The translations under genes and the position numbers were made by a program. This document shows positions 3,812 through 43,164 of a stretch of DNA of 64,000 nucleotides, piece by piece; positions within the stretch are counted from its first letter, which is position 1, and the number at the start of each line of letters is the position of its first letter. The DNA is taken from IMG/VR virus record IMGVR_UViG_2799113103_000001, positions 3,854-67,853 of that record; one strand, 5' to 3'. The notes under the pieces are model-generated. The model was not told where the DNA came from, did not search any database, and saw only the letters and a program-made list of their open reading frames with translations. This stretch comes from a virus.

Positions 3812-4402
3812 CTAGGCGCGTCCTTGCGGAGGTTCGGTCTCCGCCTCCGCGTCCGGCTCATCCAGCGGGATTGCGTCCGGCAACTCAGTGGACGCCGCGT
3901 GGAGGCGTTTCAGTTGGCCGCGCAGTCCCAGTACCGCTTCCGTATTGCCCTGCAGGAAGAAATCGGACAACCCAGGTACTCGAAACGCCTTCCTGAATGA
4001 CCAGTACGCGAGGTACGCCCCGCTGGCCACATTGATTGTCACCATGGCCAGCCCGATAACGACTCCGACCGTGTCGCGTTGGTGGGCCATCATACCGACA
4101 AACCGGACGGCGCCTACGCCAGCGGCAATGAGGATGCAGCCGATGAACCCGGTAAGCAGGTCAGAACGCGGGCGGCTATCGGCCATCGCCCGCCCTTTGA
4201 GCCGAACCGCCACCGACTGCCTGAGCCACAGGGCGTGCGCGGCGAGCCCGACAGCGGACAACTTGTCAGCCAGCTCAAGGTCTTTGGATAGAGCCTCCCA
4301 GGTGCGATGCCGCGCACCCCTCCAGGCCGCCAATGCCCATCCAGACAGCAGGGTCACGACCGGTAGCACGACCGCCGTCACGACGGTTGCCTTGTCATCC
4401 AT
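3812..4402 (-). CDS. integral membrane protein (about 4 TM segments)
   Basis: hydrophobic segments VVTAVVLPVVTLLSGWALAAW, FIGCILIAAGVGAV, VGVVIGLAMVTINVASGAYLAYW. Confidence 0.5.
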   Translation of the reverse strand: MDDKATVVTAVVLPVVTLLSGWALAAWRGARHRTWEALSKDLELADKLSAVGLAAHALWLRQSVAVRLKGRAMADSRPRSDLLTGFIGCILIAAGVGAVRFVGMMAHQRDTVGVVIGLAMVTINVASGAYLAYWSFRKAFRVPGLSDFFLQGNTEAVLGLRGQLKRLHAASTELPDAIPLDEPDAEAETEPPQGRA

Positions 4403-7996: not shown

Positions 7997-8854
7997 TCAT
8001 CGCCATCTACTTCGACTGACAGCGATGTTGTGTGCGTTTCGGATCGCGCCGGAGAGCCGGGCTTCGGGCGGGGTATCGCGCGTACGCCAGTGCCTTTGGT
8101 ACATATCGACCAACCACGTGTTGATCCGGACCCAGTCCGGCCCATCCGGCAGAGACGCTGTCGAGATGGAGTGCTCCAGACTCCAGGTCAGATACGCCAA
8201 CCAGCCCTTCACATCAGGGAGCGAGGTCTCACCGCGCCGAACGCGGAGCAGCGCATCACGATGGGCCTTGACCATCGGCAGGTGCAGCTTCCCCTCAACA
8301 AGGAGCTGGATACCCTGCATGCCCAGTCGCAGGGCGTGATACGCGTACTTGGTGTCGAAGCCGTACTGTTCGATGAGTTCGGGCCGGTTGGTGTGCCGGT
8401 GGTGAGTGCCCTCCAGCCCTTCACGCTGGGAGTTCAGGTAGCCGAGGAACTTCCGTCCGGCCTGCTTGGTCACGAACAGCTCTGAGGCGGCCTGGAGCTC
8501 GACGCCTAGTTGGGTCTTCACTGTCAGCTCATCGTCGGGTATCCAAAGCATCAGCAGCACTGAGGGATTGCCTTCGGCGGCGAGCCGCGTCCACTTCCGA
8601 AGGCTGTAGACGCACAGATCGAGGTCGCCGGGGCCGGAGCGGGCGCCGTCCGGTTGGGTGCGGTATATGTACTGTTCGAACTTCTCCAAACCGATTACGG
8701 CTTCGGGCGGTTCGATGCATATGCCCATTTCGTCGCGGTCGTCGGCGCCGGTCGTGACACCGTGCAGGCCGGAGCCGACCTGGCCGCGCAGGATCGTGTT
8801 CTCGTCCGCGATAGCGCAGTGCCGCTCCGTGCCGTGGCGCGCTTCGGTACTCAC
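7997..8854 (-). CDS. putative Pol-beta-superfamily nucleotidyltransferase (GSGLHGVTTGADDRDE motif), 285 aa
   Basis: GS-x9-DDRDE signature near the N-terminus; GTG start with GTGA overlap to the upstream small gene. Confidence 0.4.
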   Translation of the reverse strand: MSTEARHGTERHCAIADENTILRGQVGSGLHGVTTGADDRDEMGICIEPPEAVIGLEKFEQYIYRTQPDGARSGPGDLDLCVYSLRKWTRLAAEGNPSVLLMLWIPDDELTVKTQLGVELQAASELFVTKQAGRKFLGYLNSQREGLEGTHHRHTNRPELIEQYGFDTKYAYHALRLGMQGIQLLVEGKLHLPMVKAHRDALLRVRRGETSLPDVKGWLAYLTWSLEHSISTASLPDGPDWVRINTWLVDMYQRHWRTRDTPPEARLSGAIRNAHNIAVSRSRWR

Positions 8855-9021: not shown

Positions 9022-9239
9022 TGGGAGGTGGCCGTTCTACCGTCGATGATTTTCTGGATGAGTTGGGGGCTGCACTTCACGGCGGTGGCGAGGGTGGCGT
9101 GGGTCCACTTCTCGCGCTCGTTCGTCCAGAGTTCCCGTACCAGCCGGTCGCGCTGGCTTCGGTGCTGGCTGGCGGAGTCACGGTCTTCCCCGGCCAGCCG
9201 GTGGTGCTCACGGGCTTGCTGTGCCCTCGGGTCCATCAA
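9018..9239 (-). CDS. small HTH protein 73 aa
   Basis: ORF track; HTH-like THATLATAVKCSPQLIQKI. Confidence 0.4.
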   Translation of the reverse strand: MMDPRAQQAREHHRLAGEDRDSASQHRSQRDRLVRELWTNEREKWTHATLATAVKCSPQLIQKIIDGRTATSQ

Positions 9240-9670
9240 CGGCCCCCGATGTCCACGCGGCGGCGGGATATCTTCTCGATCGCGGTGATGGCTTCCCCTC
9301 CGGGGTCTTCGATCTCGAAGATGCCGTGCTCAGCCGCTTCACGGCCTGATTCGAACAGCGGCACTGGACTCACGTACTCGAATGCGGCCTGTACGTCCTC
9401 AGGAGACAGCGAACCCGTGACGGCGCCCATGCGAATTGCGAGTAGTTCCTCGCCGCCGTGACAGCCGATCCAGCCTGCGCATAGCCGGGCCGCTTCGTCG
9501 GCGACGTCAGTCTGGTGGCACAGGAACAGGCCGGTCGGCTGCTCCGAGGTCGGAGCGTCGTACGCGATGAGCTTCTGGTACTCGGTGGCATGCCACACGC
9601 CGCTGGGAACGTCCTCCCGGTAGGGGCACGACGCGCAGGGGCGCGGCGCGGGGCCGCCGACCCTGCCCAT
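9236..9670 (-). CDS. hypothetical protein 144 aa (Cys-rich N-terminus)
   Basis: ORF track; coupled to the rsr stop. Confidence 0.4.
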   Translation of the reverse strand: MGRVGGPAPRPCASCPYREDVPSGVWHATEYQKLIAYDAPTSEQPTGLFLCHQTDVADEAARLCAGWIGCHGGEELLAIRMGAVTGSLSPEDVQAAFEYVSPVPLFESGREAAEHGIFEIEDPGGEAITAIEKISRRRVDIGGR

Positions 9671-9672
9671 CG

Positions 9673-11376
9673 TTACAGGTCACCTCGGGCGAAGTCCGAG
9701 ATGAGCTGCGGCACCGCGCTATCGAACCCGGACACGTCGAGCTGGCGCGGGTCCGAAGGATCTGCGATGGTCTGCCGGCCGCCGGTCATCGCGACAACCA
9801 TCAGGCTGGTATCCAGGCCGAGCTTGTTCCGGTACTCGGTGAGCGCCTGGTGCGGGTGGATACCGCCGTACCAGGTCTCGTTGTCGGTGAGGATCACGAC
9901 GGCGTCGTAGGGGCGGAGCTGCGCCTTGGCCCAAACCATCGGGAGCGCGCAGTCCGTCGCACCCATGGGGAGGCGTGCCGTGTACTGGCACACGTCATCG
10001 AGGCGGCGGCGCGGCGTGATGTCCAGCTCCGTGATGCCGGATGAGCGGAAGCTCCCTCCGGCCCCAGCCGTGAAGCCGATCATGTCGTGATTGGGCTCAA
10101 CGTTGGCGGTCACGAGGGCGAGCGCGGCGGCGGCCTCGCGGCACGTCAGCGGCATACCCGAGATCGCGGCGCCCATGGAGCCGGAGATGTCCAGCGCGAG
10201 CAGGGTCCGCTTGCCCGAGGGCTCGACGGCGCCGTAGGCGCTGTAGAACGCGGCGTCGAGCGCGTCAACGATGTGCCGGTTCGGCGTCCAGGTGGACTCA
10301 CCGCGCGCCGAACGCCCGGAGGCATAGGTGCGCTGCGCGACAAGGACATTGATCGGGTGGACGCGGCCCTTCCGTAGCCGGTCGGCGTCCTGGAGCTGCG
10401 CAGCGACCCGGCTGCCGAGCTGACCGTTCAGCACGCCGAGGCGGGTTAGGCGGGGCAGCTGCCGCATGAGTGCGGTCTGCGGGAGGCCGTGCTCGATCAG
10501 GGCCTCCCAGATCACGGGCTGCGTAAGGGCCTTGTCGGGGAATGCCTCCCATGGCAGGCCGTTGCCCCGGCGGATGATCGCCAGCCACTCCTTGGCGGTG
10601 GTAGCGCGCTGCGCGGCCTCGTAGTCCGCGATGATGGCGAGCGGGTGCCCGTCAGCCAGTTCCACGTCGGGCAGCTTGGGGCGCTTGGGGTTGCGCTCAC
10701 CGGCCTTGAGCTGCTCAGGGGTCAGCTCCCGCACCGAGACATCGGTGTAGTCGTTGAGACCCTTGCCGACAGCCCAGTTGAACGCCAGGCGGCGGGCCGG
10801 GTCGCTGGTGGTGGGGCCGCTGAGCCGGAGCATGTCGCGGTGGGTCCAGCCGTCACGCTGCCGGTACTTGACCAGCTGGTAGGCGAGCCGGTCCACGGGC
10901 TTGTCCAGGTACCAGCTGGAGACGGCGCGCTTCATCGCCGGTCCCCAGCCACGGAACTGCTCCATGTACTTGGTGAACAGGTACAGGTGGGTGGCGGTGC
11001 GCGCGACTCGGGGCAGCGCGGCGGCGGCGGCACGGCGGCCATCGACGTTCTCGGCGGCCGACGCGATAGCGAGCGCGAACAGGGCCGGGTTCTGCTTGGG
11101 GGCGCGTCCGGCCTCGGAGACCTCAACGATCTTCTGCACGAGGGTGACGGGATCGGTTGCGGCGAGCCGGATCACGACATCGGCGGCGTCACGGGTCAGG
11201 TCCTCGGCGGAGGTGTAGTACGTGCCGCCGGTCGTGCCGAGGGTCAGGAACCGGTGGAGCCGGGTCCAGTCGTCGGCCTGGAAGGTGTAGCCCCCGGCGG
11301 CGTTCTTGACCTGGCGCGGGTCCGCCTTCTGGGATTGGGGGGTGCGCCGCGTGCTGATCGAGGATAGAACGTCCAC
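9673..11376 (-). CDS. rsr: Ro60-like protein Rsr (TROVE domain plus vWA domain with DISGSMG MIDAS motif), 567 aa
   Basis: RLHRFLTLGTTGGTYY and PALFALAIA resemble Ro60 hallmark segments; C-terminal vWA with DxSxS; GTG start with AAGGAG 6 nt upstream. Confidence 0.8.
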   Translation of the reverse strand: MDVLSSISTRRTPQSQKADPRQVKNAAGGYTFQADDWTRLHRFLTLGTTGGTYYTSAEDLTRDAADVVIRLAATDPVTLVQKIVEVSEAGRAPKQNPALFALAIASAAENVDGRRAAAAALPRVARTATHLYLFTKYMEQFRGWGPAMKRAVSSWYLDKPVDRLAYQLVKYRQRDGWTHRDMLRLSGPTTSDPARRLAFNWAVGKGLNDYTDVSVRELTPEQLKAGERNPKRPKLPDVELADGHPLAIIADYEAAQRATTAKEWLAIIRRGNGLPWEAFPDKALTQPVIWEALIEHGLPQTALMRQLPRLTRLGVLNGQLGSRVAAQLQDADRLRKGRVHPINVLVAQRTYASGRSARGESTWTPNRHIVDALDAAFYSAYGAVEPSGKRTLLALDISGSMGAAISGMPLTCREAAAALALVTANVEPNHDMIGFTAGAGGSFRSSGITELDITPRRRLDDVCQYTARLPMGATDCALPMVWAKAQLRPYDAVVILTDNETWYGGIHPHQALTEYRNKLGLDTSLMVVAMTGGRQTIADPSDPRQLDVSGFDSAVPQLISDFARGDL

Positions 11377-11400
11377 CGTGTGCTCCTTGCTGGGTTAGGT

Positions 11401-11477
11401 GGCGCGGGCGTGTGAGTGACCGCCGGGGTTCATCCAGTTGCGAGGTTGGGGTAACCGACCGTCGTCCTGCTCGCGCC
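11401..11477 (-). ncRNA. Y-RNA-like unit A, stem-only
   Basis: RNA reads GGCGCGAGCAGGACGACGGUCGGUUACC-21 nt-CCCCGGCGGUCACUCACACGCCCGCGCC; terminal GGCGCG/CGCGCC pairing; shares the conserved stem strands of units B-E. Confidence 0.45.
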
Positions 11478-11491
11478 AAAGGGGTTTGGGT

Positions 11492-11612
11492 GATGTGGGC
11501 GTGTATGTGCTGACCGGGATTTCGCTTTTACACCCGCACCGGGGCACGGGCGACAGGGGTCGAACCTGCATTACCAATTGAGTGATAACCGACCGAGCGT
11601 CCTGCTCACATC
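11492..11612 (-). ncRNA. Y-RNA-like unit B with a T-arm-like hairpin (GCAGGUUCGACCCCUGU) but no recognisable D-arm
   Basis: terminal GAUGUG/CACAUC pairing; conserved GAGCAGGACGC..GGUCGGUUA and CCGGUCAGCACAUACACGCCC strands. Confidence 0.45.
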
Positions 11613-11647
11613 GAAAAGCTATGGAGTTATTGATAATTCGCGTAGGC

Positions 11648-11786
11648 GGCGTGGGCGTGTGATTGCTGACCGACCGTTTAGCGTGCTGCCGTTACACCAC
11701 GGAGCGCCTACGGCGCGCCCGCCGGGATTCGAACCCGGACTACCTCTTTTCGACAGAGATAACCGACCTGCGTCCTGCTCACACCA
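11648..11786 (-). ncRNA. Y-RNA-like unit C with a permuted tRNA-like module
   Basis: T-arm CCGGGUUCGAAUCCCGG; acceptor-like helix GGGCGCGCC-GUA-GGCGCUCC; D-arm-like CGUGGUGUAACGGCAGCACG; terminal GGUGUG/CACGCC pairing. Confidence 0.5.
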
Positions 11787-11805
11787 TCTACTGCGAAGCC
11801 TTGGG

Positions 11806-11944
11806 GATGATGCGGGCGTGTGTGTGCTGACCGGGGTTAAGCGCTCTACCGACTGAGCTACAACCACTTTCGTGGCTGACGGGACTCGAACCCGCGACCT
11901 CTCCATTACAAGTGGTAACCGACCTGCGTCCTGCTCGCATCATC
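11806..11944 (-). ncRNA. Y-RNA-like unit D with a permuted tRNA-like module
   Basis: T-arm GCGGGUUCGAGUCCCGU, then 7-bp acceptor helix CAGCCAC-GAAA-GUGGUUG, then canonical D-arm UAGCUCAGUCGGUAGAGC; terminal GAUGAUGCG/CGCAUCAUC pairing. Confidence 0.55.
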
Positions 11945-11962
11945 AATGTGAAGTTGTATCCG

Positions 11963-12137
11963 GGATGGCGTGGGCGTGTGAGGTGCTTACCGGCGTTGAT
12001 CTTGGATCAATGCATTCGGCCGCTCTGCCACGTTCCGCCCGATGAAAGCCCGAAGCTCTTTCAGGCGGCCCGGCGGGATTCGAACCCGCGATCTGATGAT
12101 TTTCAGATAACCGACTCGCGTCCTGCTCACGCCATCC
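11963..12137 (-). ncRNA. Y-RNA-like unit E with a permuted tRNA-like module
   Basis: T-arm GCGGGUUCGAAUCCCGC; acceptor helix closed by a UUCG-capped hairpin; terminal 10-bp GGAUGGCGUG/CACGCCAUCC pairing; extra hairpin UUGAUC-CAA-GAUCAA. Confidence 0.55.
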
Positions 12138-12140
12138 ATG

Positions 12141-12290
12141 TTTTGTTGACTACGCCATGAACTATACCTCAGTAATGCCTGTTCAGGGCATATTTTTTGA
12201 GGAAATGTTGATTCGCTGGAAGGTGACTCCCGTACCGGGGAAAGTATGCCGTCGCGGGCCTCGACCTGGCTACCGAATATCGGTATCAGT
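12141..12290 (-). promoter_or_regulatory. AT-rich intergenic region upstream of the Y-RNA array; candidate promoter; contains a plus-oriented hairpin plus T-run (ATGCC-TGTTCAG-GGCAT-ATTTTTTG)
   Basis: AT-richness 12141-12240; no ORF; hairpin followed by T6. Confidence 0.3.
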
Positions 12291-13031
12291 TCAGTGAGGT
12301 ACTTCGTCCAGGCCGTTCATCTGCAGCGTCGCGACCATCGCTTCCACCACCCGCTCCGCGGACCAGTCGTCGGGAGCCGAGATCAGCGTTCCCTCATTCT
12401 GCTTCGACATGGTGAGCCCATCCGCAACCTGCGTCACGGCGGCGGTCTGCGCGTTGATCCAGGTGCGGTAGCCAACCCGGATCTTCCAGTTGCCGCGCCG
12501 CGCGACGCGGTTCGCTTCCCTGTCAGTGAGCATCAGGTACGAGGGGCGCCATGTGGAAGCGACGGCTGTGACCACTGCGTCACCCACTTCGCTGGTGAGA
12601 CCGCCCGGTGTGATCTCCCGCAGGTCCACCTTGAGATGGTGTGCGGGCACTCTGCCTCCGAAACTGACATATCCCGCGCTCACCCACACCCTCACCTCAA
12701 CTGACGGACCAGCGCCCATCAAAACCATCGAATAGCCCTCACCGGACAGGGGTTCACCGTCTTCGCCGTCTGGAAGCGCCTCTCGCACTGGGTTTCTACG
12801 GACTATGCCGGCCAATACCTCCGGCGAGCCCTCCCACCGATCACCCCTTGCGGTATCCCATCGGGCGATACCGAGAATCCCCTGCAACTGCGCCAGCAGC
12901 GCATCCGCGCGCCCGGCGATCCACTCTGGTGTTTCACTCTTCGCGAGCCAGACGGCGGTCACGAACGCGTATCCCGACCAGACCGGTGAGGGTGCATGTG
13001 TTGCGGTCACAGCTTCCAACTTTACTTTCAT
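12291..13031 (-). CDS. putative immunity protein for the upstream toxin (246 aa)
   Basis: immediately downstream of the toxin gene with ATGA overlap; no recognisable enzymatic motif. Confidence 0.45.
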   Translation of the reverse strand: MKVKLEAVTATHAPSPVWSGYAFVTAVWLAKSETPEWIAGRADALLAQLQGILGIARWDTARGDRWEGSPEVLAGIVRRNPVREALPDGEDGEPLSGEGYSMVLMGAGPSVEVRVWVSAGYVSFGGRVPAHHLKVDLREITPGGLTSEVGDAVVTAVASTWRPSYLMLTDREANRVARRGNWKIRVGYRTWINAQTAAVTQVADGLTMSKQNEGTLISAPDDWSAERVVEAMVATLQMNGLDEVPH

Positions 13032-14935
13032 GGCTTCTCGGGGGTGTAGATCACTCGAACGTCAGGGAACCCACCTTCATCCAGGAGATCACGAATTATC
13101 GCCGCACTCGAAGGATTAGCGACGTGCCATTCAAGTGCTGCCCCTTCTGGTAGGGCACGCAGCTGCCTCTGGGCTTCAGCGAGGAGGCCGTTCTCAATGT
13201 TCACTGTCCACGGCTTACCGGGGCTCTCGAACAGGGGCGCGTAGTTGTGTTTCGCGTCGAGGAAAACCTCCTGACCGCCCCGCTCGATGGGTCCGCTGTC
13301 GAACCTGACCACCTGGCCAGTATCGGGGTTCGTCACGACGTACTCCGGTATGCGCCCGTCTGGGGTCCGCTCGATACCCGTGATCTGGGACTGGTAGTCC
13401 ATCCAGGGCTTCTCCGGGCCGCGATTGACGTGCTCCCAACCTGGCGTGGGGTCACCCTTGGTCCAGGTCGGCTCGGGAGTATGGGGCGGCCACCCACCCG
13501 GGTGATGCGGATCTCCCGACGTGTAGTGCTGCCCCACGCTGGGGTCGAACTGATCGGGTGTCGGTAGTTGGTGCTGGGTCAGGGGTGGAGAGTGGTCGCC
13601 GACCGTAGGTGCTGGATGATCGACCGTGGGGGCGAGATGGGTTGCTTCGCTTGGGGGCTCTGCGGTGTGTGCGGGGGCTGGTGTGTCGTGGAGTGCGCCG
13701 GGGGCCGGAAGATCCGGGTGCATGCTGCCCAGATGCGCAGCAGACCCTTCAAGTCCAGCACGGGGCAACAGGCCCTCGGGACCACCTGCCATTAGCGCCC
13801 CACCATCGACCAGCCTTTCCCCGACATATTGGCCGGGATTTTCGATGTTGTGCTTGATGCCTTCGGCTATGTCGGCGCCAGGTGGGGTGGTCATCTGGTG
13901 CTTGAAGGATTCCCATTCACGCCTACCGGCCTCTTCGTTAGCCTCCCAAAAACCCTTGTCGCCCAACCCCAAGCGGTCCCGCAGGTCAGTGAAGGGGGCG
14001 GCCAACTTATCGACGCCCTTGTCGATGCCCTCGGAAATGTTCGTCTTGAAACGCTCCGCAGCCGATGGTTTGTGTTCTTCCGGTGGCTTGTCGTTGCGAT
14101 TGAGGTAGGTGACGCTTTCGCCCAGGCCGCCCACCTTGGTCTTGTCGATGGTGTCCTTGGCGAACGGGCCGTATTGCGGGGCATTCGGGTCGGCAGCAGC
14201 GGTGGCAGCGGTCGGGGTGGTCGCGGGATTTTTGATGTGCTCCAGCTTGTCGCCGAGCGTCCCGGCGCCGGGATCGATGGAGGCCGGATCGGTGGCCTTC
14301 GGGTACCAGTCCTTGTAGAAGTTCGCGGGCTGGGCGCTCGGGTCGCCGGGTTTCGGGGTCGCGGCGTCGCGCAGGGCTTTGCGCCCGTCCACGAGTGCCG
14401 TTTTGGGGTTGGCGCAGCCGGTGATCTTCTGGGCCGCCGCGTCGGCCTGTCCCTTGAGGGTTTGGCAGCCCTTCTCCCACTTGGCGACGTGGTCCTTGAT
14501 CAGGCGTTCGGTTTCGGCGACGTGCTCGCGGTTTCGGGCTATCGAATCGTCGCTCTCGCCTTCGGCCGGGTGGTAGTCGCACTTGAAGTTCTGGTCGATC
14601 GAGACGCCCTTGTCGGCGTGCGCCAGCACCCTCTCGATGAGGTTCTGCCCGCCGGTCAGATTGGGCACTACCTCGTAGGTGATGGTGGCCGTCGCCAGCT
14701 TGACGGCGTCCTCGGCGGTGTCGTCGGTGTTGTCGGAGACGCGGCAATCGGTGGACGCCCCCTCGTAGGACGCGGTCGCGGTGTGCCCGGTCCACTCCGT
14801 GCCATCGGGGCTGCCTGCCCAACGCTTGTAGTCGTCGTAGATTTCCTTGAACTGCTGAGTCTGCGGACGCCACGTATCGACCACCGCCATGTAGTCATTG
14901 GCCTTGACCGCCATGAACTCATCGAGCGTCGTCAC
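13028..14935 (-). CDS. polymorphic toxin: N-terminal WXG100-like domain (YKRWAGSPDG), long Pro/Thr-rich linker, C-terminal PD-(D/E)xK-like nuclease domain (RIPEY..RFDSG..QEVFLDAKHN)
   Basis: WXG motif at about residue 35; low-complexity PT-rich middle; C-terminal E..D..ExxxDAK pattern; start GTG at 14935 or ATG at 14914. Confidence 0.55.
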   Translation of the reverse strand: MTTLDEFMAVKANDYMAVVDTWRPQTQQFKEIYDDYKRWAGSPDGTEWTGHTATASYEGASTDCRVSDNTDDTAEDAVKLATATITYEVVPNLTGGQNLIERVLAHADKGVSIDQNFKCDYHPAEGESDDSIARNREHVAETERLIKDHVAKWEKGCQTLKGQADAAAQKITGCANPKTALVDGRKALRDAATPKPGDPSAQPANFYKDWYPKATDPASIDPGAGTLGDKLEHIKNPATTPTAATAAADPNAPQYGPFAKDTIDKTKVGGLGESVTYLNRNDKPPEEHKPSAAERFKTNISEGIDKGVDKLAAPFTDLRDRLGLGDKGFWEANEEAGRREWESFKHQMTTPPGADIAEGIKHNIENPGQYVGERLVDGGALMAGGPEGLLPRAGLEGSAAHLGSMHPDLPAPGALHDTPAPAHTAEPPSEATHLAPTVDHPAPTVGDHSPPLTQHQLPTPDQFDPSVGQHYTSGDPHHPGGWPPHTPEPTWTKGDPTPGWEHVNRGPEKPWMDYQSQITGIERTPDGRIPEYVVTNPDTGQVVRFDSGPIERGGQEVFLDAKHNYAPLFESPGKPWTVNIENGLLAEAQRQLRALPEGAALEWHVANPSSAAIIRDLLDEGGFPDVRVIYTPEKP

Positions 14936-14945
14936 ACCCGCGCCC

Positions 14946-15266
14946 CTATGCGCGCTTGGGCGGCTGATAGATGGTGGGCAGGCTGCTATAACCGGCCGCC
15001 AGGGAACTCTCCGTGATCGCGAAAGCCTGATGGGCCTCGTCATCGAAGTCAGCGATCGTGTTCAACCGGGCAGCGCCGATCCGCTTCACATCCGCGATAG
15101 CCTTCGACACCCCATGCAGCGCTGCCAACCCCGGATCAGCACCAGCAGGCGCCCCAACATCAGCCGGAATGCTTTTCGTAAGCTCACCGGCAAGTGTCCG
15201 CAGATGCGGGCCGAGCTTGCCCAACGCCGCAAGATCAAACTTGAGAACGTTCTCATCGCCCGACAT
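14946..15266 (-). CDS. small alpha-helical protein (106 aa), possible ESX/WXG-type partner of the toxin; no canonical WXG
   Basis: GAAGGGGG RBS 4 nt before ATG; position directly upstream of the toxin. Confidence 0.4.
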   Translation of the reverse strand: MSGDENVLKFDLAALGKLGPHLRTLAGELTKSIPADVGAPAGADPGLAALHGVSKAIADVKRIGAARLNTIADFDDEAHQAFAITESSLAAGYSSLPTIYQPPKRA

Positions 15267-15359
15267 GACACCCCCTTCGGCAACCAACCGTGTGATTGCC
15301 AGCACACTACAGGAGCAGTAGCGGGTTCCGCAGGGGGAGTTGCCTGGGGTAGGTGTTCG

Positions 15360-38876: not shown

Positions 38877-39758
38877 TTACGAGGGCAACTTCTCGATGAC
38901 GCGTTGCAGCGCGTCTCGCGCGCGGATCAGATCGCTTGCGTAGATGGCGATTTGGTCCGCGTTCTTGTCGAAGCGGTCGTCAGCTGCCAGTGCCTCTACC
39001 CGCTTCACCGCCTTCGTCATGGCCGTGGTGGCTTCGGCGAAGGAGTCTGTGATCGGCTTCCGGCGGGGCGTGGGCACGGGAACCGGGACGGGGGCGGCGG
39101 GCGTGGGGAGCACGCAGGACTGGTGCTCGTCGCGCCAGTCCTGGAGTGCCAAGCGGTCTTCGTCTGCCGCCCCGGAGTAGAGGGTCATGGTGGATCCGCA
39201 CACGCACTTGGCGAGGCTCTCCACGGTCTCGAAGGTGGCGGCAGCGGGGGGAGCGCTCACCTCCGAGACCGTGGGAGCGCCCGTGGCCGCCTGCGCGGGG
39301 GGAGGCGCAGCATTGGCAGCCGCCGGGGGCTCATTCGGGAGGTCTGGGACAACCGTCAGCGTGGGCCGTACCGGCTGGGTCGGCTGGTAGGCCTTGCCGT
39401 TGGTGCCGGTGACGGGTGCTACTGAGTCATTTGACTCAGTAGGGGGTGCGGGGAGTTCGCGTTGCACGGTGCTCTGGCTGACCCCGGTTGCCGCCGCGAT
39501 GGCGCGTGTGGAGAGCCCGGAGTCGCGGAGAGACAGCACTACCTCGGCGCGGGTCTCGCGGGGCAGCTTGAACCAGGTGGAGGCGAACTCGCGCTCGCAG
39601 TACACGTCCCAGGACGGATATCCGAGGACGGCCCATGCCCGCTGGGTGTATGCCTTAGCTATGAGGTCCCAGACGCGATTGACGGAGCTGCGGATGCTCT
39701 CGGTGAGTGCCCGCGCGTCACTCGGCGACATCGCGGTCACGGAGACGGCGGACATCAT
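38877..39758 (-). CDS. HTH DNA-binding domain protein 293 aa (LSTRAIAAATGVSQSTVQR)
   Basis: sigma region-4-like HTH. Confidence 0.45.
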   Translation of the reverse strand: MMSAVSVTAMSPSDARALTESIRSSVNRVWDLIAKAYTQRAWAVLGYPSWDVYCEREFASTWFKLPRETRAEVVLSLRDSGLSTRAIAAATGVSQSTVQRELPAPPTESNDSVAPVTGTNGKAYQPTQPVRPTLTVVPDLPNEPPAAANAAPPPAQAATGAPTVSEVSAPPAAATFETVESLAKCVCGSTMTLYSGAADEDRLALQDWRDEHQSCVLPTPAAPVPVPVPTPRRKPITDSFAEATTAMTKAVKRVEALAADDRFDKNADQIAIYASDLIRARDALQRVIEKLPS

Positions 39759-40009
39759 GCGGCCTTGGAGGCAGAGTCGGGCAGAAGAGAGGTGATGGAG
39801 ATGCCCAGAAACCGGGCGATGCCGTCGAGGTCGGCAAGGGTGAAGCTCAATTCCCCTGTGAGTCGGCGACTTACGTACTGCCGGGTGCGGCGGAGGGGAA
39901 CGGCGGCGTCAGTGGCGGTGAAGCGGCGGCGGGCGAGCTCGGCTCGGATGGTCGCACCAACCATTTCATCCAACGTCAGAACGTTACTCACAGCGTAACG
40001 ATAACTCAT
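39755..40009 (-). CDS. Cro-like XRE-family HTH protein 84 aa, divergent from the repressor
   Basis: HTH QYVSRRLTGE; position relative to the repressor. Confidence 0.5.
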   Translation of the reverse strand: MSYRYAVSNVLTLDEMVGATIRAELARRRFTATDAAVPLRRTRQYVSRRLTGELSFTLADLDGIARFLGISITSLLPDSASKAA

Positions 40010-40125: not shown

Positions 40126-40581
40126 ATGAGCGCTATGAGTACGTTGTATTCGGTTCCGAACGAGACCCTGTCCCAGACAGTGGCCCGCCGAATCCGGGGG
40201 CTGCTCGGGGAGAAGCGCATCTCTCAGGCCAAGTTCGCCAAGATGCTGGAGACGAACACCGCGAGCATGTCGCGGCGGCTCTCAGGCGAATACCCCATCG
40301 ACCTGGCTGAGGTTGAAAAGTATGCAGCCGCACTGGGGGTGTCCCCAATGCGGCTGTTGACTGGTCGGCCTGACGGCAGTGGCCCGGATGGACCTGATGT
40401 GCGCCCGAAGGGATTCGAACCCCTAACCTTCTGGTTAGGGGTTCCCAAGTCGCCTGCGTCTTCCGATAGCGCCATCACTGATCTGGGCGAGTATCGCAGG
40501 GCGCGACGCCACACGCCAACACGCCACGCACCAGCCGCCTCTCACCCGGACCGTGCGGGCCTCGATGCGGGCGCGGCGTGA
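40126..40581 (+). CDS. immunity repressor, XRE-family HTH, 151 aa virion form ending ..DAGAA; attP core lies inside the ORF
   Basis: HTH ISQAKFAKMLETNTASMSRRLSG; tRNA-3'-end-like sequence at codons about 92-106; Ala-Ala C-terminus. Confidence 0.6.
   Translation: MSAMSTLYSVPNETLSQTVARRIRGLLGEKRISQAKFAKMLETNTASMSRRLSGEYPIDLAEVEKYAAALGVSPMRLLTGRPDGSGPDGPDVRPKGFEPLTFWLGVPKSPASSDSAITDLGEYRRARRHTPTRHAPAASHPDRAGLDAGAA
40401..40445 (-). other. putative attP common core: tRNA 3' end mimic (AGGGGTTCGAATCCCTTCGGGCGCA on the minus strand) with a 9-bp inverted repeat CCCCTAACC-n4-GGTTAGGGG
   Basis: T-loop GGTTCGAATCC plus a 7-nt acceptor strand; no matching 5' half nearby. Confidence 0.45.
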
Positions 40582-40583
40582 GC

Positions 40584-41270
40584 CTAAGCCGCATCCTCGC
40601 CGGACTGGGCGTGCCGCCGGGCTCCGACCACACCGGCCAACGACAGCGCCGTGAAGCTGACGAGCTGGATCGTCCAGACGATTGGGTAGGTGGCCTCCAG
40701 CGACCAGCGAAGCGTGTACATATCGACGCGATCCACGATCATGAGCAGCGGGTAGAGGGCACCAACCAGACCGTAAATTCCGAAGAGCCAGAACAGTACT
40801 CGGTTCTGGTGACCCCTTCTCGCGCCGATGACGGCGGCGATATGGGTGGGCAGCAGACCGGCCGAAAGCAGCCACGAGAACACGTAGCTCGGCGGCCCGG
40901 GGATCGTCTCGACCACGAGGCTCGGGGTGGTGGAGAGGTTGGTGATCAGGTACACGGCGCTCATGCCGATGATCGATGCCCATGTAATCACCAGTGCCCA
41001 AAGAGTATTGAGACCTGCGACCTCGCATGTGGTGCGCGCGAAGATGTACGAGGAAGCCACCATGAGCACGTAGGTGATGATTTGCGACAAGTTCGCCAAG
41101 CCAGTCAATTCCATCAGCGGCGGGTCCAGGGTCGTGACGAGCGCGCTGACGAGCTGCGAAACGCTGGTCACCCACAGCCCGATAGTCAGCAGCCACGGCG
41201 CACGTACGACCGTCCGGTAGAGCGCCGAGAGCGCAAGAACCACAGCGCACGCAGTGCCGAGTGGGTCCAT
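40584..41270 (-). CDS. polytopic membrane protein 228 aa (about 6 TM), convergent with the repressor
   Basis: hydrophobicity pattern. Confidence 0.5.
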   Translation of the reverse strand: MDPLGTACAVVLALSALYRTVVRAPWLLTIGLWVTSVSQLVSALVTTLDPPLMELTGLANLSQIITYVLMVASSYIFARTTCEVAGLNTLWALVITWASIIGMSAVYLITNLSTTPSLVVETIPGPPSYVFSWLLSAGLLPTHIAAVIGARRGHQNRVLFWLFGIYGLVGALYPLLMIVDRVDMYTLRWSLEATYPIVWTIQLVSFTALSLAGVVGARRHAQSGEDAA

Positions 41271-41566
41271 CAGAAACCTTTCTCGAAGATCTCAGCAGCG
41301 GTTGGCCGCCTCTTAGGCCGGTCGGGGGTATCGCGGATAGCTTCCGCGATGACCTCCATGAGATCGGCATCCAGGGCGTTGGCGATCAGGTCTGCGTCGT
41401 CAAGTCCGATTGGCTGCGTACCGGTACGGCGCGACCCCAGCAGCCGCGACACCTTGTCGGCGGTGTAGCCGGTGCGCTTGGCGATGGTGTGCTGGTCGAT
41501 CTGCTTCTTCGCGGCGATGGCGCGGAGGACAGCACTGACGGCACGGGACAAGGGGTGTTGGCGCAC
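41270..41566 (-). CDS. HTH DNA-binding protein 98 aa
   Basis: HTH HTIAKRTGYTADKVSRLL. Confidence 0.45.
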   Translation of the reverse strand: MRQHPLSRAVSAVLRAIAAKKQIDQHTIAKRTGYTADKVSRLLGSRRTGTQPIGLDDADLIANALDADLMEVIAEAIRDTPDRPKRRPTAAEIFEKGF

Positions 41567-41761: not shown

Positions 41762-42727
41762 ATGAGCTCAGGCCCACAACCGCTCCCCGTCCCTCATGAG
41801 TGGCAGCCACTCGTTGACCGGTATCGGCTCGCACTCCAGGCAGCCGGATACCCGAAGACCACCATCGGCACCCGGATGTCCCACATGAACCGGATCGCCA
41901 GATCCTTGGCGGTTCCGCCCGAGGGAGTGACACACGATCTACTCGAGGTGTGGTTCGCGCACCAAACCCAGTGGGCTCAAGAGACCCGGCGCGGCTATCG
42001 CACCTCAGCGACGAAATTCTTTGGCTGGGCCCACGCAGCAGGCCACATACCAATCGACCCATCCACGAAACTGCCGCCAGTGAAGCCGGGGCAACCCACG
42101 CCGAACCCCGCACCTGACCGCATCTGGAAAGAAGCGCTCCTCGCGGCCGACGCCAGAACCACGGTCATGCTGCACCTCGCTTGCGGGGCCGGGCTTCGAC
42201 GGGCCGAAGTCGCACAAGTCCACACCGATGACCTCCGGGAGGGCTTCTCCGGGTACCAGCTGCTCGTGCACGGCAAGGGGGCCAAGGACCGCCTGATCCC
42301 GATCTCAGACGAGATCGCAGCGATGATCCTCGCCGGGCCGGGCGGCCACACCCCCGGTCACGGCAACCGAGGATTCTTGTTCCCTGGGGCCGATGGCGGC
42401 CACCTCTCCGCACGGTGGGTCGGAAAGCTCTGCGCAGCAGCGATGCCGGGGGTTTGGACGATGCATAAGCTGCGGCACCGGTTCTCTACCCGCGCATACC
42501 AGCGCACCCGGAACCTCCGCGCCCTCCAGCAGCTCCTCGGGCATGCGAGCGTCGCCACCACGCAGATCTACACTGCGGTCGATGACGACGAGATGCGGGA
42601 GACGATGCTCGCCGCTACTGACACCAGCCCGCGACCTTGGACGCGATGGGCGAGTTCTGCAGCCGGGGTCGTTGTTGCGGCAAGCGCCGCGACACTAGCC
42701 AGTCATGCGGTGTCGCTAGTACCTTAA
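41762..42727 (+). CDS. int: tyrosine integrase (R..HxxR..Y catalytic C-terminus LRHRFSTRAY...QIYTAVDDD), 321 aa, no arm-binding N-domain
   Basis: tyrosine recombinase signature motifs. Confidence 0.75.
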   Translation: MSSGPQPLPVPHEWQPLVDRYRLALQAAGYPKTTIGTRMSHMNRIARSLAVPPEGVTHDLLEVWFAHQTQWAQETRRGYRTSATKFFGWAHAAGHIPIDPSTKLPPVKPGQPTPNPAPDRIWKEALLAADARTTVMLHLACGAGLRRAEVAQVHTDDLREGFSGYQLLVHGKGAKDRLIPISDEIAAMILAGPGGHTPGHGNRGFLFPGADGGHLSARWVGKLCAAAMPGVWTMHKLRHRFSTRAYQRTRNLRALQQLLGHASVATTQIYTAVDDDEMRETMLAATDTSPRPWTRWASSAAGVVVAASAATLASHAVSLVP

Positions 42728-42732
42728 CCGCT

Positions 42733-43164
42733 ATGGACCTGCGGAAACTCGCCTTGTGTGCGCTCTCAGCGGTGGCGCTGGCTGGATGCAGTCAGCCTGC
42801 CGGCCAAACTGCTGCCGGCGGAAGCACGGTCGTCACGTCGGTGATCGTGTCGGTACCGGCGGCGGCGCGGGAAACTGTCACCGTGACGGCGCAACCAACT
42901 TCCGTAACCCCGGAGGAGGGCGACCCTAACGACCAGGCGTTCATGGCCGTGCTTGTGCAGCACGACATCAACGTGGGCAGCCGCGCGCAGTCGATCGCAC
43001 TGGGACACAGGGTCTGTGATTGGTTCGAGGAGCGGCCAGACAATGACTTGGCCGCCGCCGTGAAGGGCATCGTCCAGAGCTACCCGAAGATCTCCCAGGA
43101 GCAAGCTGCGCTCTTGGCTGGCGCGGCGGGCCGCGCGTATTGCCCGGACACTCGAATCAGGTAG
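42733..43164 (+). CDS. DUF732-like lipoprotein (lipobox LAGC)
   Basis: signal peptide MDLRKLALCALSAVALAGC; Cys pair VCDW..YCPD. Confidence 0.5.
   Translation: MDLRKLALCALSAVALAGCSQPAGQTAAGGSTVVTSVIVSVPAAARETVTVTAQPTSVTPEEGDPNDQAFMAVLVQHDINVGSRAQSIALGHRVCDWFEERPDNDLAAAVKGIVQSYPKISQEQAALLAGAAGRAYCPDTRIR

Follow-up and report, generated by a model that had tools for sequence, protein, structure and literature searches.

A probable ESX-secreted polymorphic toxin cassette of the PT-Imm/PEST type with a Tox-REase-5 end, located beside Ro60 in the early region of a phage genome

The stretch of phage DNA analyzed here, which is referred to below as the window, consists of 64,000 nucleotides (nt) of the IMG/VR record IMGVR_UViG_2799113103_000001 (positions 3,854 to 67,853). 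It carries on its minus strand a cassette of three genes encoding a small secretion partner, a polymorphic nuclease toxin, and an immunity protein. We are largely confident that this is a phage-encoded polymorphic toxin cassette of the PT-Imm/PEST type, the toxin of which would be secreted via the ESX (type VII) system of the host. The three open reading frames (ORFs) described in the initial annotation of this DNA were all found at the expected positions on the minus strand, apart from the fact that the toxin consists of 635 amino acids (aa) instead of approximately 636. The features of the cassette are as follows:

15267–15359, minus strand: upstream region of 93 nt, a candidate promoter/operator with an inverted repeat and a conserved motif
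14946–15266, minus strand: helical partner of 106 aa, the relatives of which are annotated as “WXG motif” or “ESAT6-like” proteins
13028–14935, minus strand: polymorphic toxin of 635 aa (from the ORF list)
14396–14935, minus strand: toxin head, putatively ESX-targeting (residues 1–180), with helices, the W48-T-G50 turn, and Y121-x-P-x-E125
13439–14395, minus strand: constant middle region of the toxin (residues 181–499), with Pro-rich stretches, a conserved central segment, and HYxSGDPHHPGGWPP at the junction with the variable end
13031–13438, minus strand: Tox-REase-5 (PD-(D/E)xK) domain (residues 500–635), with E531, D546, D560-A-K562, Q591, E602, and H604
12291–13031, minus strand: cognate immunity gene (246 aa), the start of which overlaps the toxin stop codon
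12175–12191: G+C-rich, terminator-like hairpin detected in a consensus scan, possibly the end of the cassette transcript

The ATG of the partner gene at 15266 is preceded by GAAGGGGG. The toxin gene starts with a GTG located 10 nt beyond the partner stop codon, and its homologues begin with MTTLDEF at the same site, while the ATG of the immunity gene and the stop codon of the toxin gene overlap in the form of ATGA. All the genes in this part of the window are on the minus strand. A plus-strand ORF of 395 aa lying inside the toxin gene (13829–15016) was taken to be an antisense ORF of the kind seen in every frame of G+C-rich DNA.

The partner gene and the part of the toxin gene encoding the first ~220 residues showed ~80% DNA identity with annotated cassettes of M. 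abscessus prophages, which bears out the earlier proposal that this is the ESX cassette published in mycobacterial prophages. The PT-Imm cassettes of the M. abscessus prophages consist of the same three genes, have WXG motifs for type VII export and variable C-termini including Tox-REase-5, and are located beside the attachment junctions (Dedrick et al., 2021; PMC8092301). Tox-REase-5 toxins are reported there in prophiGD57-1 and prophiGD08-3, and the RNA-seq data show that the cassettes are expressed in lysogens, including that of prophiGD43A-3, in which we found a homologous Tox-REase-5 end. Such cassettes were named PEST in a paper in which two of them are shown to be toxic without the immunity gene and a PE25/PPE41-like heterodimer is predicted (mSystems, 2023; PMC10654092). 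The window cassette shows DNA similarity to the PEST1 representative in prophiGD43A-6 (H16/H17), and the heads of the two toxins are homologous. It has the gene order (partner, toxin, immunity) and the modular mosaicism of the PT-Imm/PEST cassettes of the M. abscessus-chelonae prophages, and its partner and head show 72–87% aa identity with those of prophiGD43A-5, prophi58-1, and prophiGD08-3. The Tox-REase-5 variants carried by prophiGD57-1, prophiGD08-3, prophiGD43A-3, and prophiT46-2 have the same toxin domain and the same immunity family (48–55% aa identity), but the toxin end and the immunity protein of the published phage versions are only ~50% identical to those of the window. In view of this homology, the cassette is a new allele of the PT-Imm/PEST system.

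The C-terminal end of the toxin was identified by comparison with Pfam: residues 511–608 match Tox-REase-5 (PF15648) over model positions 1–95 of 95, with a score of 28.5 bits versus a curated cut-off of 25 (E 2.3e-6). A PD-(D/E)xK-like domain had been proposed from the stretches RIPEY, RFDSG, and FLDAKHN. These stretches are present and contain E531, D546, and D560-A-K562, respectively; among 152 family members, the degree of conservation is 86% for the first of these and 93% for each of the other two. An exhaustive search among 1.84 billion representative proteins yielded 197 relatives of the toxin end, and in most of the full-length matches the domain occupies the extreme C-terminus of proteins of many different lengths. 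The best-conserved columns in 152 relatives correspond to Y514, Q515, G520, E531, D546, G548, (D/E)560-A-K562, Q591, E602, and H604. The signature of the Tox-REase-5 family includes Y, FDG, EAK, Y, Q, and W (Zhang et al., 2012; PMC3482391), and its counterparts in the window toxin, namely Y514, F545-D546-(S)-G548, D560-A-K562, Y565, Q591, and W603, are all on conserved columns. The FDG motif has one extra residue (FDSG), as it does in ~5% of the family members.

In the AlphaFold2 model of the toxin end, the block means of the predicted confidence score (pLDDT) range from 80 to 97 across model residues 61–160 (toxin residues ~530–629). E531, D546, and D560/K562 lie on three successive predicted strands, which are followed by a helix bearing Q591, and fold comparisons with this model gave a restriction-endonuclease fold like that of the solved members. 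TseT was reached from the toxin end by Pfam and fold comparison only; searches of the PDB by sequence, using either the single sequence or a profile of the toxin end, did not reach it, and no NCBIfam match was obtained with any of the cassette proteins. TseT is listed as a DNase, and its Burkholderia relative TseTBg degrades both DNA and RNA, the DNase activity being abolished by mutating the conserved D and K (PMC9990079). The toxin end is a Tox-REase-5 PD-(D/E)xK domain of the TseT type, which would most likely cut DNA and possibly RNA. It differs from the TseT of the P. aeruginosa type VI secretion pair TseT-TsiT (PA3907-PA3908; PDB 7dym, 9oz0) in that the sequence identity is only 19–20% and that TseT is delivered by the type VI system with PAAR and chaperones, whereas the window toxin has a putative type VII-targeting head.

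The initial annotation had classified the toxin as polymorphic and had recommended checking the conservation of the head and the variability of the C-terminus in homologues, and exactly this pattern was observed: the head is conserved while the C-termini are swapped. Approximately 170 proteins, almost all from Mycobacteroides, have the first ~70% of the toxin in common. Six Pfam toxin ends occur behind the shared head (PF15648, PF14410, PF13930, PF12639, PF14021, and PF15644), the alternatives to Tox-REase-5 including GH-E, Endonuclease_NS_2, colicin-type HNH, TNT, and glutamine deamidase ends. The homologues with other Pfam ends align with the window toxin up to residues 449–511, often 476–497, which places the swap point just after HYxSGDPHHPGGWPP. 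This near-invariant motif (residues 470–484; window 13484–13528, minus strand) lies directly ahead of the exchange point and may, like VENN in CdiA, delimit the site of recombination or processing. The constant middle region is 91–92% identical to that of loci L003 and L007, the divergence from these loci being greater in the head and in the toxin end. As regards the long Pro/Thr/His-rich linker originally described, residues 396–510 do have this composition (P 22%, H 11%, T 10%), while residues 291–395 form a conserved segment that is not proline-rich.

In the model of the head (residues 1–200), a helix (13–41), a turn (42–50), and a second helix (51–105) are followed by a small hairpin and a third helix (129–174). 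The invariant WxG of the family is W48-T-G50, which is present in 82 of 82 homologues and lies within the predicted turn between the helices, around which the pLDDT is only ~60. The W-A-G triplet previously taken to be the WXG motif is another one: W39-A-G41 is located at the end of helix 1 and forms a WxG in only 57 of the 82 homologues. The motif Y121-x-P-x-E125 is kept in 79 of the 82. The head therefore has the helix-turn-helix with WxG in the turn that is a feature of WXG100 proteins, which the partner, having no Trp, does not; no tryptophan occurs anywhere in the partner family. The 106-aa ORF upstream, which had been mentioned as a possible secretion partner, is a real gene: its 30 homologue clusters contain proteins of typically 106 aa, with 65–100% identity, that are always encoded directly upstream of a toxin gene, and the window partner is 85% identical to gp112 of prophiGD43A-5. 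PE25/PPE41 and the CpnT-type ESX substrates of M. tuberculosis also have a helical head bearing WxG and YxxxD/E, together with a small helical partner whose gene lies upstream, and CpnT likewise has a C-terminal toxin domain. The resemblance of PEST1 to PE25/PPE41 is reported in the PEST paper, and it is on the AlphaFold model published there for a related cassette that the putative PE/PPE-like heterodimer of partner and head is based (PMC10654092).

The 246-aa protein encoded downstream was presumed from the outset to be the immunity protein, and the pattern of co-occurrence supports this assignment. Its homologues were found in exactly the 11 phage records bearing a homologous Tox-REase-5 end (11/11), where they are encoded directly downstream of the toxin, and where the annotation of most of them is that of an immunity protein of a polymorphic toxin. 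In the sister phages L022 and L039, the same slot contains another toxin end with a Tdi1-type immunity protein encoded behind it, which identifies the downstream position as that of the immunity gene. The PADLOC models PDC-M17A and PDC-M17B, which are partners, also match the two proteins: PDC-M17A matches the toxin end (E 4e-13), aligning only with the C-terminal ~135 residues (window 13031–13444), and PDC-M17B matches the 246-aa protein along with other members of its family (33 of 42 matching).

Taking these data together, the 106-aa partner would pair with the toxin head, which bears the W48-x-G50 turn and Y121-x-x-x-E125, to form a PE/PPE-like bundle, which the type VII (ESX) system of the host would recognize, exporting the toxin. 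The module located beyond HYxSGDPHHPGGWPP would be interchangeable; in the present allele, it would be a Tox-REase-5 nuclease of the TseT type that most likely cuts the DNA, and possibly the RNA, of the recipient cell. The 246-aa protein would bind and neutralize this nuclease in the producing lysogen.

The matches with both PDC-M17 components raise the question as to whether the cassette might serve for intracellular, prophage-borne defence against phages or abortive infection, the nuclease being freed upon superinfection and secretion being irrelevant or secondary. The PADLOC PDC systems are only candidates, and no mention of PDC-M17 was found in the literature searched. The WxG turn, the YxxxE motif, and the dedicated partner have all been kept, although an intracellular toxin-antitoxin system would have no reason to conserve them, and the swapping of ends behind a constant head is a hallmark of exported polymorphic toxins. 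Prophage-mediated defence is nevertheless one of the three open roles listed for these cassettes in the PEST paper (PMC10654092), and the slot occupied by the window cassette contains a BrnT/antitoxin pair in prophiGD43A-5. On balance, a defence function of this kind is rather unlikely. Conversely, PDC-M17 appears, on the basis of these sequence matches, to be a Tox-REase-5 toxin/immunity pair, and its role may be that of a polymorphic toxin system, not that of a defence against phages.

The only unusual trait of the cassette is its position deep in the phage genome, which is shared with a small lineage. The window is a reversed and rotated relative of the 76.5-kb cluster MabK prophage prophiGD43A-5, and is organized as follows:

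64–45 kb: tail and lysis genes
41762–42727: tyrosine integrase gene
40126–40581, plus strand: repressor gene of 151 codons, containing the core of the phage attachment site attP (~40404–40440)
39755–40009: Cro-like gene, divergent from the repressor gene
39.7 down to 15.4 kb, minus strand: early genes, followed by the cassette, the Y-RNA modules, and Ro60

Three independent lysogen assemblies with an identical integrase all end at window position 40404, in codon 93 of the 151 codons of the repressor gene, which is the signature of an attP located within that gene. The sequence at this point, GGGATTCGAACCCC, resembles the 3' end of a tRNA, and attP is likewise annotated inside the repressor gene in prophiGD43A-5. 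The cassette (12,291–15,305) is therefore 25.1 kb from attP (~40,404), in the early block, the strand of which it shares, and immediately upstream of the Y-RNA/Ro60 region, as had been noticed in the initial annotation, where a distance of roughly 25 kb was given. A location beside attL/attR or the integrase gene, which is typical of the PEST cassettes rather than strictly defining them, is not that of the window cassette. In prophiGD43A-5, the cassette sits between the lysis genes and the integrase gene; no toxin is encoded in the corresponding interval of the window, where a DUF732 gene and a gp115-like gene are found instead. On the early side, the cassette is separated by a gap of 93 nt from a 173-aa phage gene (PHROG 12222, annotated without any function), and on the other side it is followed by ~900 nt of tandem Y-RNA-like modules and then by Ro60 (9673–11376; TROVE and vWA domains).

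The position beside Ro60 is not a one-off, as it occurs in a small lineage of ~74–75 kb phages. The closest toxin (84% identity) is that of M. abscessus subsp. massiliense GCA_900133605.1, which has the same arrangement. Among the 65 related IMG/VR loci, three are in the Ro60 slot, all in sequences of 73.8–74.4 kb, and 56 are near a contig end, an integrase gene, or lysis genes; in another phage, a cassette 78% identical across the whole toxin is in the standard position beside the integrase gene. When the window was compared with the massiliense sister phage, the flanks showed 92–98% DNA identity and the cassette 63–90%, the most highly diverged part being the immunity gene (56% aa, 63–65% nt identity, versus 76% for the toxin end), and two other sister phages carry a different toxin/immunity pair in the Ro60-adjacent slot. 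With a shared slot, conserved flanks, and swapped pairs, the slot is stable and diversifies in place.

The upstream region of the cassette shows a conserved element that may be involved in its regulation. The motif TGTAGT[GC]T is present in 29 of 40 distinct cassette upstream regions, wherever the cassette sits. In 28 of the 40, it ends 29–48 nt ahead of the start codon of the partner gene, and one copy is located 85 nt upstream. It usually has a CTAC or ACTA arm 4–10 nt ahead of it, forming a short inverted repeat (as seen upstream of the partner genes in loci L013–L077), and it contains a TANNNT-type –10 candidate. In the window, the CTAC-N8-GTAG inverted repeat overlaps TGTAGTGTG at 15303–15311; there is a single copy of this 9-mer in the window, as would be expected by chance, and its weight comes only from its conservation across loci. 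No mention of this cis element was found in the available parts of three prophage papers. Judging from the pattern of conservation, the data suggest that the cassette may have arrived with a promoter of its own, and perhaps with an operator, so that it could be expressed in the lysogen amid lytic genes. At the other end, the hairpin at 12175–12191 lies 100 nt downstream of the immunity stop codon, with a T-run on the plus strand only; it is possible that the minus-strand transcript of the cassette ends at this hairpin.

Several results weigh against the ESX-secreted cassette as we have described it. Neither the head (14 members) nor the partner (28 members) matched Pfam WXG100 (PF06013), PE, or PPE, even at E <=10, and profile searches of the PDB with the head and the partner gave no solved WXG100, PE, or PPE relative by sequence; for the partner family, neither Pfam nor the PDB yielded any sequence match at all. 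The fold searches performed with the head returned generic three-helix bundles, PPE41 ranking only 38th and PPE15 41st, and the partner has neither a WxG nor a YxxxD/E motif. The comparison of the N-terminus with WXG100/EsxA that had initially been recommended did not therefore yield the expected family match: since the head and the partner show no WXG100/PE/PPE sequence match, the original description of the toxin as WXG100-headed is right in terms of the architecture and the motif, but not in terms of tested family membership. The immunity protein gave a match with Imm52 (PF15579) that was below threshold (E 0.15, 12.1 bits versus a cut-off of 25), and only four of its 42 relatives matched this family, again below threshold (best E 0.01); Imm52 is the immunity family that was paired with Tox-REase-5 by Zhang et al. 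(2012; PMC3482391). The profile of the immunity family gave no relative among the solved proteins, and no sequence similarity was found between the 246-aa protein and TsiT. As far as expression is concerned, a scan of the 11.3–16.4 kb region for sigma-70-type promoters gave no site. The published cassettes adjoin the junction and are usually oriented opposite to the lytic genes, unlike the window cassette, and since the latter has the same direction as the early lytic genes and is 25 kb from attP, its expression in the lysogen is less certain.

This unusual position could be taken to mean that the cassette has moved from the junction into an early lytic operon beside the Ro60/Y-RNA genes, where it would be expressed in the lytic cycle, and that its nuclease serves the phage itself rather than being an ESX weapon of the lysogen. 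We consider this to be very unlikely. If it were true, the toxin would be a lytic-phase nuclease attacking the nucleic acids of the host or of rival phages, or released at lysis, possibly coupled to RNA handling by Ro60 and the Y RNAs. The cassette shares its strand with all the flanking early genes, no terminator was predicted upstream of it, its position beside Ro60 has been kept in the lineage of ~74–75 kb phages, and relatives of Tox-REase-5 can cut RNA as well as DNA (PMC9990079), all of which would fit lytic expression by read-through, with the nuclease being directed against host or competitor DNA or undergoing bacteriocin-like release at lysis, possibly along with Ro60/Y-RNA. However, the upstream motif shared with the junction-proximal cassettes suggests that the cassette has a regulation of its own, the 78%-identical cassette works from the standard position beside the integrase gene, and an immunity protein expressed at the same time would block the nuclease inside the producer. 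In addition, the unrelated toxin-antitoxin pair present in the Ro60-adjacent slot of prophiGD43A-5 makes the vicinity of Ro60 look like a shared accessory slot rather than a functional link. Read-through expression of this kind is therefore highly improbable. Lastly, it is scarcely credible that the toxin is inactive and that the cassette is a relic undergoing decay: the extra residue in the FDG motif and the Pfam score only just over the threshold might point in this direction, but none of the three ORFs is disrupted, the conserved catalytic positions have all been retained, the identical protein is present in three independent assemblies, and the immunity gene has diverged in frame from that of the massiliense sister phage, which indicates selection rather than decay. 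The reading that we prefer is therefore still that of an ESX-secreted cassette of the PT-Imm/PEST type.

Some other features of the window and its relatives were also recorded. The full-length repressor ends in -GAA, and the arrangement of the repressor gene and attP looks like BPs-type integration-dependent immunity, the site of insertion being a tRNA gene of the host. The interval between the repressor and integrase genes contains two genes on the reverse strand (40584–41566), one encoding 228 aa with no family match and the other 98 aa with a weak helix-turn-helix (HTH)/MarR-like match; neither of them has a counterpart in prophiGD43A-5. The DUF732 gene (42733–43164, plus strand, 143 aa) follows the integrase gene in the interval where relatives have the toxin cassette, and may be another accessory gene expressed in the lysogen. 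A second cassette near the integrase gene, to which a match with gene 111 of prophiGD43A-5 had seemed to point, was rejected: this match consisted of joined alignment pieces, and tblastn found a single copy in the window. The possibility that the window might be an integrated prophage with host flanks was also rejected, as the sequence is continuous through the attP site.

Between the immunity gene and Ro60 (11390–12160, minus strand) there are four to five tandem Y-RNA-like modules, with a repeated GAGCAGGACGNNGGTCGGTTA core and GGTTCGAATCC T-arm-like elements. A match with the Rfam YrlA model below threshold was obtained at 11825–11925 (36.9 bits, E 3e-6), and a tRNA model matches across 11714–11867. 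Phage-borne Ro60 with YrlA RNAs has been mentioned previously (PMC4201824). The genes around Ro60 at 24–896, 7997–8854, and 9236–9670 (all on the minus strand) have links with RNA repair or RNA handling: they include an RlaP-family nucleotidyltransferase (PF10127), a DUF6283 gene directly after Ro60, and a relative of a prophiGD43A-5 gene annotated as a polynucleotide kinase. These genes along with the Y RNAs suggest the existence of a phage module for RNA repair or quality control. In prophiGD43A-5 (locus L001, 24889–26079), the slot before Ro60 contains the reverse-strand BrnT-like toxin/antitoxin pair, to which the cassette slot of the window corresponds, and a feature annotated as tRNA-Thr, which might correspond to the tRNA-like domain of a Y RNA. 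Toxin-type accessory genes seem to accumulate in the Ro60-adjacent slot.

This type of cassette, its Tox-REase-5 variant, and the modular exchange of toxin ends have already been published, and the present find adds an allele rather than a concept. That PDC-M17 appears to be a toxin/immunity pair matters for the counts of “defence systems” made in genomes. The Ro60-adjacent lineage keeps and exchanges toxin/immunity pairs, which means that such cassettes need not be near the attachment site in order to persist or diversify. This lineage constitutes a natural test of the idea that the promoter is borne by the cassette, and the upstream motif and HYxSGDPHHPGGWPP provide handles on the regulation and the recombination of these cassettes, respectively.

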